A DNA stretch of 63,178 nucleotides from Candidatus Moraniibacteriota bacterium. GTDB taxonomy: Bacteria; Patescibacteriota; Minisyncoccia; Moranbacterales; UBA1568. The position numbers and the translations under genes are program-made. Below are positions 2,788 through 15,573 of this stretch, piece after piece (positions within the stretch are counted from its first letter, which is position 1; each line of letters opens with the position of its first letter). The stretch is taken from assembly GCA_023261645.1 (NCBI GenBank), contig JAHFOO010000002.1, positions 1 through 63,178 on the forward strand, in the 5' to 3' direction. Under the pieces are notes generated by a model. That model was not told the DNA's origin, did not search any database, and saw nothing but the letters and a program-made list of their open reading frames with translations.

Positions 2788-3438
2788 ATGAAAAAGTTGT
2801 TTAAAATCACTGTACTCGTTGCTGCAACGGCACTCATCTCGAGTGCTTTCGCTGCCGACTACAAGGTCAATGGCGCGGTTGTCGCAAAATCGGGCGGTGC
2901 CACGACCCTCTCGGTCGGCGCGGTGACTGCCGACAAGGTGGCTGTTAGTATCAACAACATCGCGGCGGTCTGGAAAGAAGATCCCGGCGCGACCTACGGC
3001 GCCACTTCACTGCAAAGTGAAGATGGTAAAAAGGGCGTGAAGGACTGGGTTCTCACGTATACCGCTAATCCGGAAGTGTTCGCAGGTGCCAAGCAGTGCA
3101 TCTTGAAACGTGGTGCTGACTGGCCAGGGACAGCTAACTTGAAGTCGTTGAAACTTGACGATGCCAAGGTGGTCTGCTCTCCAATCACGGGCGCCGATAG
3201 CACTTACAGTGTCGACATCACCGGGGACTTCAATGTTCTCGGTCTCGTACCGGTCATCGAGTTCAAGGACGGCAGTCGGGCGTGGGGCTCGCATCCGTTT
3301 GGCCAATCGCGTGGTAAAAACATGCGTGGTCAGACCATCACACTTCTCGAGGTCAATCGTGACAAATCGGGCAATGCGGTGAAAGTGGGCCCGGCCAGCA
3401 ATCAGGCCAAGGTCTTCTTTCATGGGCGATTTCAATAA
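2788..3438 (+). CDS. secreted hypothetical protein (216 aa)
   Basis: ATG at 2788 follows AGGAG; signal peptide ending SSAFA; GC-richer codon usage than the core genes. Confidence 0.8.
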   Translation: MKKLFKITVLVAATALISSAFAADYKVNGAVVAKSGGATTLSVGAVTADKVAVSINNIAAVWKEDPGATYGATSLQSEDGKKGVKDWVLTYTANPEVFAGAKQCILKRGADWPGTANLKSLKLDDAKVVCSPITGADSTYSVDITGDFNVLGLVPVIEFKDGSRAWGSHPFGQSRGKNMRGQTITLLEVNRDKSGNAVKVGPASNQAKVFFHGRFQ

Positions 3439-12120: not shown

Positions 12121-13186
12121 ATTGGCGACATCCTCTCTCGGTCGTGCCTTTGTTGTAACATTTTTTTTCGTTACACTGGCAGCGGGTCTTTTTTGGCTCG
12201 ATTTTTTCCGGAGTTACAGTGCAGAAGTGACTGTCCTTATCGTTCCGAAATCCGGTACGACACAGACGTTCGAAGGTGTGGCGGACAATATGGCAGAGCT
12301 GACAGGCACACTTTCATTTTATGATCGAGTACTCGCGGGGAATGATTTGATAGACGATGATTTCGCTTCATATGCTCCGGATAAACGTAAGGAGCAATGG
12401 AACAATATTGTTTCAGTAACAAAACAAAACAAGAGCGGAGTTCTCGTCATTCGAGCGATCGGAGATACGCAGGAGCGGGCGAAATGGCTGGCTTCACAAA
12501 CAGCACAGACGATGTTTTCAGTCGCTGGTTTGTACTACAATGTGAAAACGGATATTGATATGCGCATCGTCGATGGCCCTCTTGTTTCTTATACCGTTGA
12601 GAGACCGTTCTTTTATGCAGGAGTCAGTCTTCTAACAAGTTTTTCCTTGACAGCTCTTTTTTTCTTCCTTTTGCGTGCAGTACCCGAATTGATCTGGAAA
12701 AAGAAAAAAGACATACCTTTTCCAGATACGTATCCTGCACCGGTGCAGTCAGGTTTCGATGAAACTCTTATGAGGCGTGCCTATCCGGAATTCGGCGTGG
12801 GAGAGTCCGTTCCTTGGATTGATCCGAAAAAGTTCATTCCCGAAAAACCACACGTACTTTCATTTGAGAATCAGTCTCAGGAGGGGGCGGATGCTTCTTC
12901 AGTGTACGGATCTCGCACCGTGAAGCATGCGGAAGCTCCGGTCAATCTGCCGACGGCGTATGATGAGATGGATCTTCCTGTGGCTGACGAAGCATCTCTT
13001 CCGTTTGAATTCGAGATACCATCGGACGAAACGAACGCTCCGGAACTGCGGGAAGAAACAATAATGATGACTCCGCAAGAAGAGTTGGTGGCATCTCTTT
13101 CGTCTCCAGAACCTGTGCGAGGCGAACCGACACAGGAAGAATACAGACGACGCTTGAATGTATTACTCGCCCATAAAGGAAAATAA
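12098..13186 (+). CDS. two-TM protein resembling a polysaccharide chain-length determinant, with an acidic Pro-rich tail
   Basis: TM-periplasmic domain-TM layout (YSAEVTVLIV; IDMRIVDGP); located in the glycan cluster. Confidence 0.6.
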   Translation: MLRIIRNKLATSSLGRAFVVTFFFVTLAAGLFWLDFFRSYSAEVTVLIVPKSGTTQTFEGVADNMAELTGTLSFYDRVLAGNDLIDDDFASYAPDKRKEQWNNIVSVTKQNKSGVLVIRAIGDTQERAKWLASQTAQTMFSVAGLYYNVKTDIDMRIVDGPLVSYTVERPFFYAGVSLLTSFSLTALFFFLLRAVPELIWKKKKDIPFPDTYPAPVQSGFDETLMRRAYPEFGVGESVPWIDPKKFIPEKPHVLSFENQSQEGADASSVYGSRTVKHAEAPVNLPTAYDEMDLPVADEASLPFEFEIPSDETNAPELREETIMMTPQEELVASLSSPEPVRGEPTQEEYRRRLNVLLAHKGK

Positions 13187-14562
13187 TGAAAAAATATTCT
13201 ACTCAATTTTGGACAGTTTTTATCATCGGATCGATCATCTTTCTGTCCGGCTGGTTTGCGTATTGGGAAGTGAAAAATCAGGGATTCGAGAGTCTGCAAC
13301 GCCTTCTCGGTTTGGTGCCTCTTCCACAAGAAACGAAAACTGATCTGGAGACGGTGATGTATTTGGCCGATGCAGTACTCCATACCGACGGGAAAGAGAA
13401 GGTATTTTTGATTCTTTTTCAAAATAATTTGGAGTTGCGTCCGGGAGGTGGGTTCATTGGATCATTTGGTATTTTGAAAGTTCGTGATGGTTCCGTCGTC
13501 GATTTTTCCGTACACGATACCGGGAATTTCGACGGACGTATCCCGAGCACGGTCGCTCCTCCGTATCCGATGCAAGAAACGCTTCATATCGATTCGTGGA
13601 AATTGCGTGATTCGAACTATGCCCCTGATTTTTCTGAGAATGCCAAATGGGCGGAAACGTTCTATCAAATGGGACAGGGACAAGAAAAATTTGATGGTGT
13701 TGTCGCGGTGACGACCAATGTACTGACATCGTTTCTTCATGTGACAGGACCGGTAACTATCGATGGTTACCCCGGTACTTACGGTGAAGAGAACGCCATT
13801 TTGGATCTCGAATATCAGGTAGAACAGGGATATCTCAAGCAGAATATCGATTTTGGCGAACGGAAATCGGTTATGACCGTACTCGGATTCGGAATCCTTC
13901 ACCAAGTGAAAGGATTATCGCTCACAAAAAAATACGAATTGTTCAAAGTAGTGCTAGATGATCTGCATAAGAAAGATATCCAATTACAGTTTCAGGACGA
14001 GATACTTCAGAAGCAGGTTTCTGCTTCAGGCTTTGACGGTCGTATGGATGACAGCTGGAAGAGCGATTATCTGTTCCTTACGGATGCTAATCTCGGTTCT
14101 TTCAAGACCGACTACTTTATGAAGCGTTCCTATGCCTATACCATCGATCTCTCCTCGACTGAGGCGCCCAAGGCGACGCTCGCAGTGACATACAAGAATA
14201 CGACTCCGGTACAGGATTGGTTCGCGAAGGATTATCAGACGTTTCTTCGTGTGTATGTTCCGCAAGGAAGTTATCTGACTACGGTAACGGGGGCGGCCAA
14301 GGATCCTGTGTATGGGACATTCCTGAATAAGAAATATTTCGGGGCACTTGTTCACGTACCGATTTTGACGGAAAAAACAGTCGTCTTCGAATATACGTTA
14401 CCGCAGGATTTGAAACGTGAGTGGTATGATTTGAAAATACAAAAACAGCCGGGATTGAATGACGTTCCTGTCACAGTCACGATTATCATGAAAGATGGAT
14501 CCAGAGAAGAGAAACAGTTTGTACTCAACAGGGATACCGTGTTGAGTGAGATCAAAAATTAG
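13186..14562 (+). CDS. DUF4012-like membrane-anchored protein
   Basis: LILFQNNLELRPGGGFIGSFG, LRDSNYAPDF, FDGVVAV motifs typical of this family. Confidence 0.8.
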   Translation: MKKYSTQFWTVFIIGSIIFLSGWFAYWEVKNQGFESLQRLLGLVPLPQETKTDLETVMYLADAVLHTDGKEKVFLILFQNNLELRPGGGFIGSFGILKVRDGSVVDFSVHDTGNFDGRIPSTVAPPYPMQETLHIDSWKLRDSNYAPDFSENAKWAETFYQMGQGQEKFDGVVAVTTNVLTSFLHVTGPVTIDGYPGTYGEENAILDLEYQVEQGYLKQNIDFGERKSVMTVLGFGILHQVKGLSLTKKYELFKVVLDDLHKKDIQLQFQDEILQKQVSASGFDGRMDDSWKSDYLFLTDANLGSFKTDYFMKRSYAYTIDLSSTEAPKATLAVTYKNTTPVQDWFAKDYQTFLRVYVPQGSYLTTVTGAAKDPVYGTFLNKKYFGALVHVPILTEKTVVFEYTLPQDLKREWYDLKIQKQPGLNDVPVTVTIIMKDGSREEKQFVLNRDTVLSEIKN

Positions 14563-14664
14563 CAAAGTTGTTTTTTGCATGTGCACTGTCTGTAAGAATG
14601 CCCGATGTGGGTATTTTTGCTTTTGATAAGAGTTTTTGTGGTACAATAAAGTAAAAGTGTCTGT

Positions 14665-14842
14665 TGTTCCTGAAAATTATCTTTTCTCTCCCTTCTTTCT
14701 CCGTCGAACTTTTCCGACTCAGTCGTCGATAAACGTCACTGTCCTGTCGAGACCATCCGTCACGCTCCGTTTCTAATGACACTTTCATCGCAAAAGTTAC
14801 CGACAGAGAAATAGGAGCAAGAAAAAATAATTTTCAGAAACA
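14665..14842. repeat. ~180-nt foldback (rod) element
   Basis: Terminal 23-nt inverted repeat (21/23) plus nested stems CTCC/GGAG, TTTCTC/GAGAAA, GTCG/CGAC, AACTTTT/AAAAGTT, AAACG/CGTTT. Confidence 0.8.
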
Positions 14843-14877
14843 TCTACTTTTTGTCATAATCTGTGTTCTGAACAAAA

Positions 14878-15573
14878 ATGCATTTCGATATCATCTCACT
14901 TTTTCCGGAAAGCTTCACATCCTATTTTGGTGTGTCTATTCTGAAACGTGCACAGGAGGACGGTTTGATCACTGTTTCCACGCACAATCTGCGTGATTTC
15001 GCTCACGATAAACATAAAACAGTCGATGACACGCCGTATGGCGGTGGAGCGGGGATGCTTCTTAAAGTAGAACCATTGGCGGAGGCTATTGAATCAGTTG
15101 ATAATCGACAGCCGACAGATAGCGAAAAATTAAAGACAAGAATAATCTTGTTCTCAGCAAAGGGGAAAGTCTTTACACAATCAGATGCACGGCGATTGAT
15201 TTCATACGACCGGTTGGTTTTGGTTTGCGGACGCTACGAAGGTGTCGATGAGCGTGTGACGGAGTATTTCATCGATGAGGAATTTTCCATTGGTGAGTAC
15301 GTTCTGACAGGAGGAGAATTGCCGGCGATGATTGTTGTTGATGCGGTGGCACGGCTCATCTCGGGCGTGCTTGGCAATAGAGAGAGTACGGAAGAGGAAT
15401 CACACACCGAAGAGGGTATCGTGGAATATCCACAATATACAAAACCGGAAGACTTTCGCGGATACCGGGTGCCGGAAGTGCTTCTCTCCGGACACCATGG
15501 CAATATCCTGAAATGGCGGAAAGAAGAATCAAAGAAAGAAACAGCGAAGCATACGAGGAAATCTCTTCAATAA
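14878..15573 (+). CDS. trmD: tRNA (guanine37-N1)-methyltransferase
   Basis: VDDTPYGGGAGM, LVCGRYEGVDER, SIGEYVLTGGELPA, EYPQYTKP. Confidence 0.97.
   Translation: MHFDIISLFPESFTSYFGVSILKRAQEDGLITVSTHNLRDFAHDKHKTVDDTPYGGGAGMLLKVEPLAEAIESVDNRQPTDSEKLKTRIILFSAKGKVFTQSDARRLISYDRLVLVCGRYEGVDERVTEYFIDEEFSIGEYVLTGGELPAMIVVDAVARLISGVLGNRESTEEESHTEEGIVEYPQYTKPEDFRGYRVPEVLLSGHHGNILKWRKEESKKETAKHTRKSLQ

Follow-up and report, generated by a model that had tools for sequence, protein, structure and literature searches.

The window considered here is a stretch of 63,178 nucleotides of contig JAHFOO010000002.1, from a Candidatus Moraniibacteriota bacterium whose 840-kb genome is called G000 in what follows. 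One locus within it consists of a DUF4012 gene with its intrinsic terminator, a promoter with an extended -10 element, a long foldback (the rod) and trmD (Table 1). The identity of the last gene, already proposed in a first-pass annotation made from the letters alone, is borne out by its PF01746 match (E 8.6e-60). The motif TGnTAnAAT recurs at the -10 position in the inspected trmD upstream regions of relatives. As the rod lies downstream of this conserved extended -10 element, it is located inside the trmD 5' UTR. A second promoter-like site has 9 of 12 matches, with a TG before its second hexamer, and, judged by its sequence, could drive trmD without read-through of the rod.

Table 1. Features of the trmD locus and parts of the rod; positions are those of the window.
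Feature	Position	Strand	Evidence or remark
DUF4012 gene	13186-14562		upstream of the rod; ORF list, Pfam
Intrinsic terminator of the DUF4012 gene	14592-14620	+	conserved in relatives
Extended -10 element TGGTACAAT of the trmD promoter	14639-14647	+	found at the equivalent position in relatives
Whole foldback element, 178 nt	14665-14842	- ('sense')	RNA and DNA folds, CM R1
Outer helix, 3' arm	14665-14679	-	copy-specific
Apical internal loop, 3' strand, CAGGACAG	14739-14746	-	at least 90% conserved
Apical segment GGAUGGUCUCGA	14747-14758	-	tip variable among copies
Apical internal loop, 5' strand, GAGCGUGAC	14759-14767	-	columns at least 90% conserved
Nearly invariant bulged lower helix, GUCGGUAAC	14796-14804	-	pairs with 14703-14720 (GAGUCGGAAAAGUUCGAC); 43-copy alignment
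Polypyrimidine tract UUUUUUCUUGC	14817-14827	-	pairs with purine tract 14680-14692; semi-conserved clamp, outer helix to core
Outer helix, 5' arm	14828-14842	-	pairs with 14665-14679; copy-specific
Second promoter-like site, TTTTCA / TTCAGA ... TG-CATAAT	14831-14860	+	spans the right end of the rod and its flank
trmD	14878-15573	+	ORF; PF01746, 202 bits

The first-pass annotation had described the rod as near-continuous, with a terminal inverted repeat of 23 nt, and both its coordinates and its sequence are as claimed. The whole 178 nt fold as one rod, and the arms of the terminal repeat pair at 21 of 23 positions. A repeat finder delimits arms of 42 nt (14665-14706 and 14801-14842) that are 81% complementary with 94 nt between them, and the rod is the longest of the 17 inverted repeats that it reports in the window. 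When folded as RNA, the plus strand reaches -49.5 kcal/mol (shuffles -28.6 ± 3.7; z -5.6) and the minus strand -74.0 kcal/mol (shuffles -43.2 ± 3.9; z -7.9). None of 200 shuffles was as good on either strand, and the folding energy is thus better than that of dinucleotide-shuffled controls by a wide margin. With DNA parameters, the plus strand gives -29.0 kcal/mol (z -5.4) and the minus strand -39.8 kcal/mol (z -8.0). Inspection of the flanks agrees with the first reading in that no target-site duplication is present at the rod.

The two mismatches of the terminal arms, together with most of the other mismatches, are C-A on the plus (trmD) strand and G-U (or G-T) on the minus strand. Therefore, the better-folding strand is the one antisense to trmD. 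The wobble pairs and bulges noticed earlier do exist, but the wobble pairs are formed on the antisense strand, and the trmD strand has C-A in their place.

Upstream regions of trmD were fetched from 30 genomes, and 16 of them were inspected. A rod is present in G000, G060 and G071 and, in inverted form, in G030; the remaining 12 regions, among them that of the sister genome G084, are without it. An element-less strain is known from a contig of run X3, which differs from the window at one position in the 549 nt to the left and at five in the 198 nt to the right. The homology stops at 14648, and 59 other letters replace 14649-14875; the whole UTR differs, not the palindrome alone. When the element-less allele was sought in metagenome_contigs with an exact 26-mer of the promoter region, no match was obtained.

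Through a BLAST search, a second copy was found in the same genome, at G000:C4:134414-134556, with a ferredoxin gene on one side and a Dus gene on the other. Its relative polarity and its strand preference (-81.2 vs -64.4 kcal/mol) agree with those of the rod. A covariance model (CM R1) built from 43 copies finds four loci in G000, at 136.4, 132, 53.9 and 25.9 bits, the last of which is a candidate only (E 0.02); each of the two weak loci also forms a rod in which the bulged-helix motif is present. On the rod itself, the model scores 136.4 bits on the minus strand vs 36.4 bits on the plus strand. Across the bacterial family, CM R1 has matches in 38 of 107 genomes, with more than 200 homologous copies in total. 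The genus of G000 (g1) accounts for 35 of its 49 genomes, g6 for 1 of 4 and g11 for 1 of 10, and nine other genera have none. There are up to 22 matches per genome, counts that are perhaps inflated by weak opposite-strand matches. The census took one genome per species, and many of these are fragmented, with contig breaks often falling inside the element.

When all GTDB species genomes were searched for the exact apex 29-mer, 14 loci in 8 MAGs were found. These MAGs are labelled Moranbacteria, Moraniibacteriota or Patescibacteria, bar one that is labelled Bdellovibrionales. The same 29-mer has no exact match in viral contigs. An Rfam scan of 14000-15500 at E <= 10 gave no family and three sub-threshold matches to unrelated families, the best being MIR4208 (25.1 bits vs a cut-off of 140); all three reflect the rod shape only. 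In the literature on CPR/Patescibacteria repeats, hairpins and MITEs, supplementary files aside, no description of this foldback family was found.

Members of the family adjoin unrelated genes such as Dus, MreB, RecR and PrfA, and can lie within a handful of bases of a stop or start codon, whichever way they point. The genes between closely spaced copies look like housekeeping genes (MreB-, RecR- and RF1-like by their translations, not by Pfam) and not like transposases. No ORF is conserved in the family; the only ORF of the rod, 78 codons on the minus strand, has its ATG kept in 21 of 43 copies.

The anatomy of a copy was established from alignments of 19 and 43 copies. The unit measures about 170-210 bp, in which a conserved core of about 120-150 nt is clamped by an outer helix that is specific to each copy. 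Outer helix and clamp together contribute a median of 27.5 bp paired outside the BLAST-defined core (range 12-42). Among 821 outer-helix pairs in 31 copies, 736 (90%) are Watson-Crick, while the sequence differs from copy to copy, and at the outer end the complementarity ceases sharply. The lower helix is nearly invariant, with CGGU(A/C)AC ... GUUCG and a two-base bulge, and its G-U pair (pair 31:222) is kept in 43 of 43 copies. Two subfamilies of the element are set apart by coordinated changes in the inner helices. The apical internal loop surrounds a variable tip, where hairpins of 9 nt and 25 nt, a 12-nt segment and a GC-rich insertion of about 55 nt have been seen in different copies. The termini have no conserved motif: a TTCC/TCCC run occurs in only 11 of 30 clean arms, and a terminal TTCC/GGAA motif resembling dRS3/NTS was rejected as too loose on the same count.

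Some rods contain short GC-rich palindromic insertions of about 14-55 nt, either at the apex or within an arm. These were seen in the trmD copy of G060 (L010, ~1590-1650), in the 3' arm of G096a (L014), in L111 (G060:C8) and in the G085 copies L022, L113, L116 and L117. A perfect GC-rich palindrome of 30 bp with similar letters stands alone at G000:C4:141728-141787. The insertions suggest the nesting of another tiny hairpin element within the rods. A supposed split element with cargo at G060:C9 ~3088-3132 was rejected, as it is a degenerate short derivative, that is, a deletion product.

The strand preference of the rod is a property of the family. In the first set, 18 of 19 copies have the more stable fold on the sense strand, and in the larger one 47 of 50 do, with a mean advantage of 11.3 kcal/mol. 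The outer helices of 31 copies contain 41 G-U vs 17 A-C among their 821 pairs, although part of this region is conserved and not all of these counts are independent. Orientation relative to co-directional neighbour genes, as given by simple longest-ORF gene calls, is 15 antisense vs 9 sense, with no significant bias. An antisense bias seen in the first sample (13 vs 4 sense) was not upheld in the second (2 vs 5). A replichore rule based on dnaA positions was also rejected, since 11 copies fit it and 6 do not (five genomes).

The pairing itself is maintained by covariation. In the 43-copy alignment, 94.4% of the cells are paired, against 81.6 ± 0.6% in shuffles, and controls in which the partners were slid are paired at 32-44%. 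Changes on both sides have occurred in 15 of 24 pairs, a count that includes related sequences and is not one of independent events; it is reached by 1 of 500 shuffles. Five measures were compared in all, and for the other four the observed value was not attained in any of the 500 shuffles. Covariation also holds at a single locus: four orthologous copies between the ferredoxin and Dus genes have 78 predicted pairs, 25 of them with compensatory double changes. Between the orthologues G080a and G098a, whose flanks are 94% identical, the outer arms differ by four substitutions and two one-base indels, each of which is mirrored on the opposite arm. In other orthologous pairs, mirrored changes are mixed with G-U intermediates and mismatches. 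The idea that outer helices are unrelated between orthologues and made anew at insertion was discarded, as the arms prove homologous in the base-level alignment and their changes are mirrored. Mutation by template switching is known from quasi-palindromes. The mirrored changes of the arms may reflect either strong selection for pairing or the correction of one arm from the other via the hairpin.

Covariation and strand specificity, as expected of a structured RNA, are thus both present, and both are equally true of a folded single strand of DNA. Since the strand asymmetry survives DNA parameters, RNA and single-stranded DNA are not distinguishable here. The first-pass annotation had proposed selection on RNA structure or an aged foldback element. 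The dispersed foldback family and the compensatory changes that keep its pairing agree with this, but the RNA nature does not follow, for single-stranded DNA fits equally.

Comparisons in relatives, as had been advised at the outset, show that the presence of a copy varies even between close relatives and strains. At the ferredoxin/Dus locus, G000, G060, G076 and G073 have a copy, and so does G084, where a contig break interrupts it. No copy is there in G036, in which 5 nt separate the stop codon from the ATG, or in G056, in which the two overlap (ATGA); G095 is empty by coordinates only. At another locus, G080 and G098 have a copy and G096, G086 and G084 have none. A tree of the single gene TrmD covered the 30 genomes from which loci had been fetched but not the 14 more distant ones. 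The four genomes without the element are dispersed among those with it, G036 being the sister of G076 (98/92) and G056 that of G071 (100/100). Losses of copies certainly occur, and loss by deletion explains part of the presence/absence pattern. The polymorphism expected of a mobile element such as a MITE is therefore visible in the filled and empty loci, in the run X3 strain and in the patchy TrmD tree. In every close comparison (run X3; G080 vs G098), the whole spacer differs and no clean empty site is found, so that insertion is deduced from the pattern and not directly seen.

Three copies of G080 and one of G098 have a common 120-nt core with 99-100% identity and different outer helices. 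Such identical cores within different outer helices fit either recent duplication or gene conversion from core to core. Between G080 and G098, intergenic spacers are swapped wholesale while the flanks remain 92-97% identical. For instance, at G098:C100 ~1085-1130 (L137), the place of a G080 rod locus is taken by a different 121-nt spacer with an 11-bp perfect hairpin of its own, CATGTATTATG...CATAATACATG. In G078:C14 and G085:C46 (L133, L134), the rod occupies orthologous positions beside the same two-gene operon in opposite orientation, as would result from two separate insertions or from a recombination between the arms that flipped the element.

The search for a partner enzyme covered several protein families. 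Five transposase/RT families were examined for conserved termini that the element might hold in common with an autonomous IS, and none of the loci has such ends. Y1_Tnp (PF01797) is found in 13 of 50 genomes and in none of the high-copy genomes G080, G085, G104, G081 and G086, which have 9-22 matches each. In these five, RVT_1 is present in one, DDE_Tnp_1 in one and rve in two. TnpB (PF07282) is absent from all 50 genomes, and with it the sign of an IS200/IS605-derived element or omega RNA. The flanks of 50 copies contain no recurring direct repeat of the kind left by target-site duplication. Of the MITE characters for which a check had been suggested, small size without coding capacity (170-210 bp), dispersal in many copies (four loci in G000) and polymorphism are thus present, but target duplication, conserved termini and a partner transposase are not.

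Stand-alone GIY-YIG ORFs of 80-130 aa occur genus-wide at 1-15 copies per genome of at most 1 Mb, a striking load for CPR; examples in G000 are C2:311-517, C3:18670-18870, C3:61158-61370 and C4:160255-160464. None of 12 small GIY-YIG loci of the genus, which may not belong to the Ssn clade, holds the element at E <= 1e-3, and the GIY-YIG gene counts do not track the copy number of the element. At G000:C3:668-901 and in nine other genomes of the genus, a conserved ORF was noticed whose product of about 215-310 aa matches Y1_Tnp weakly and in part (29-36 bits). It is single in each genome and also present in rod-free genomes; from its sequence, it may be a domesticated HUH protein.

The family has likenesses to several known systems. 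REPs are 20-40 bp long with a conserved GTAG/CGTC head, and a RAYT gene is accompanied by tens to hundreds of them. Like REP/REPIN elements, which go with RAYT (Y1) transposases (PMC3733652), the rods are palindromic extragenic repeats that would act as single-stranded hairpins, and they are free of target duplication. They differ in their unit of 170-210 bp without a conserved head and in the absence of Y1_Tnp from the five high-copy genomes; a cognate Y1 gene is not apparent, as Y1_Tnp is uncorrelated with the presence of the element.

The bcr1 repeat of the Bacillus cereus group is about 155 bp long (Okstad 2004 and Klevan 2007, via Delihas 2011, PMC3184786). As set out in the sections of Delihas 2011 that concern it, bcr1 is likewise a small dispersed non-coding repeat whose distribution is not conserved among close strains, and compensatory base-pair changes keep its single-strand (RNA-level) fold (PMC3184786). 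In the same sections, bcr1 is described as transcribed, with flanking 5-bp direct repeats and a cruciform-like fold of two hairpins, whereas the rod family is known from genome sequence, has no such repeats and forms a single long rod, conserved in the centre and variable at the ends. The hairpin MITEs treated there, Correia/nemis of Neisseria and ERIC of enterobacteria, resemble the rods in size (about 100-170 bp), inverted-repeat architecture and intergenic position, as well as in insertion polymorphism and possible promoter activity at the element end (PMC3184786). By the definition given there, MITEs have conserved termini bound by a related transposase together with target duplications; in the rod family, by contrast, variability is highest at the termini, duplications are missing, and the search revealed no related IS.

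A further likeness is to the NTS/SRM hairpin repeats, a single strand of which is read by Ssn (GIY-YIG) nucleases (Chenal et al. 2025, PMC11893778). SRMs, as portrayed in the relevant portion of this paper, are also dispersed hairpin repeats with a polarity given by an oriented non-palindromic part, but they are about 30 bp long and usually flank the cognate ssn gene, while 0 of 12 GIY-YIG loci hold a rod. The 6S RNA (RF00013) is also a rod of RNA size, about 180 nt, with an internal loop; in the rod family, the loop lies beside a very short tip and not in the centre, and the family is multi-copy and dispensable. The RF00013 model has no match in G000. Pre-existing host hairpins were considered as targets and set aside: the 27 long short-loop hairpins of G000 are mostly AAAA...TTTT terminators, none of which resembles the outer helices. 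On balance, the rod family is most like bcr1 and the hairpin MITEs (Correia, ERIC), and with REP/RAYT and NTS/SRM-Ssn it has in common the proposed reading of a single strand by a protein. It fails the defining tests of MITEs, REPINs, SRMs and 6S RNA alike. Its distinctive traits are a conserved centre with free ends and the long-term compensatory maintenance of resident copies.

We regard the rods as a dispersed, duplicative foldback repeat, mobile in a broad sense, that depends on a folded single strand of fixed polarity and whose apical loop and bulged helix would be a putative protein recognition site; a probability of about 0.7 is assigned to this reading. Because it is multi-copy, lies at differing sites, is present or absent between relatives and has identical cores at several loci, the element duplicates and is lost in the way of a mobile element. 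The form under selection would be the single strand of sense polarity, be it ssDNA or RNA, and the invariant apical loop with the bulge would be recognised by the putative protein. As the termini are the least conserved part and target duplications are missing, a classical DDE transposase that binds terminal repeats is probably not involved. The rod would have come to lie in the trmD 5' UTR by accident of insertion. RNase III (PF14622) is encoded in 13 of 13 genomes tested, including G000, where its gene lies at C8:32791-33183. A read-through transcript would carry a nearly perfect duplex of more than 25 bp. RNase III cuts such duplexes, and Correia hairpins in mRNA are among its targets; here also it should cut, which would uncouple trmD from the upstream promoter. 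Given such a duplex and its cleavage, the promoter-like site at the right edge of the rod may drive trmD.

There are points against mobility as such. The identical cores with different outer helices could be due to gene conversion and not to recent transposition, and inert selfish DNA would not be expected to keep up the pairing of orthologous copies by compensatory change over long times. It is conceivable, if unlikely, that the rods are instead the nucleic-acid half of an undescribed CPR system. A putative protein would then read the apical loop and bulged helix on one strand, the outer helix would be kept by hairpin-templated correction, as suggested by the mirrored substitutions and indels, and resident copies would be retained because they serve the cell, for example as punctuation of operons or as marks on the DNA, and not because they spread themselves. 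The strand in question would be either RNA or ssDNA, the latter at the replication fork or in DNA uptake.

Independently expressed genes for a trans-acting structured small RNA, for instance a protein-sequestering rod RNA made from the minus strand and often duplicated and lost, would explain the strongly conserved core with invariant unpaired motifs, the one strand favoured in 47 of 50 copies, the model score about 100 bits higher on that strand, the covariation with its conserved G-U pairs and the persistence of orthologues over long divergence. We nevertheless hold this to be quite unlikely, because no conserved promoter or terminator was seen beside the copies in the inspected flanks, and at the rod the minus strand has only a weak 9-of-12 site from which the start would fall inside the rod. 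The copy number also ranges from 0 to about 20 between close relatives, with some genomes having none; the copies are wedged within a few bases of stop and start codons in either orientation; and neither Rfam nor the 6S model gives a match. A domesticated hairpin at the level of DNA, either a cruciform or an ssDNA hairpin formed in replication or DNA uptake and bound or cut at its apex by a host protein, is doubtful to a still greater degree. Among the protein families searched, no candidate co-occurs with it, the orientation relative to dnaA is mixed (11 vs 6 copies), and some genomes of the genus live without any copy. The persistence of the strand asymmetry with DNA parameters (-39.8 vs -29.0 kcal/mol), the lack of an orientation preference relative to transcription and the mirrored arm indels, which fit hairpin-templated DNA correction, do speak for it, and there is a precedent in the dispersed NTS/SRM hairpin repeats that, in the portion of the paper concerned, are read as ssDNA by a dedicated nuclease, Ssn (PMC11893778).

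The first-pass framing of the rod as an RNA feature belonging to trmD amounts to a gene-specific cis-regulatory leader, such as an attenuator or riboswitch-like element. Its position between the conserved trmD promoter and the start codon would suit this, and so would the good fold of the plus strand (z -5.6). Yet only 4 of 16 inspected genomes of the genus have it upstream of trmD, one of them inverted; the sister genome G084 and the near-identical strain are without it; the same element lies beside unrelated genes; and the better fold is antisense to trmD. Such a leader is very improbable, and in practice it is refuted by the distribution. A chance palindrome, or one freshly made and without history, has the palindromic shape in its favour and nothing beyond that. 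It is negligible against more than 200 homologues in 38 genomes, bulges and compensatory changes that are conserved, and 200 shuffles without an equal; on this point, the earlier judgement that the rod is no fresh DNA palindrome was correct.

CPR/Patescibacteria genomes are tiny and are thought to be poor in repetitive or mobile DNA. In the genus of G000, a structured repeat of 180 bp is present in up to about 20 copies per genome of less than 1 Mb. The usual logic of MITEs is inverted in it, as the centre is conserved, the ends run free and no target is duplicated, and compensatory change preserves the fold, also in copies that have remained in place since the species split. The family is hence a useful case for asking how a palindromic repeat persists without a transposase, and which strand or molecule is seen by selection. 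It is also a recurrent cause of contig breaks in MAGs of the genus. Among the public runs listed as holding the stretch, none is recorded as RNA. Annotation of the rod as a trmD riboswitch or as a small RNA gene should wait for expression data.

A few other features of the intergenic DNA were noted. Runs of GAATCAnGAAT-like heptamers (GAATCAA, GAATCAT, GAATCAG and their complements) occur in intergenic spacers of the genus, often next to rods; they were seen at L102 (G086:C29) ~1440-1480, upstream of trmD in G086 and G063, and at L097 (G080:C17) ~1500. They look like a separate family of short tandem repeats. The intrinsic terminators of G000 are often perfect palindromes of 14-16 bp with loops of 0-1 nt and flanking A/T runs, bidirectional by design, as at C3:48029-48058, C3:76735-76762 and C2:93089-93119. 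Also in G000, two perfect palindromes at C4:48899-48926 and C4:49121-49158, about 200 bp apart and unrelated to the rod family, have the common centre ATGTTCCAC|GTGGAACAT.
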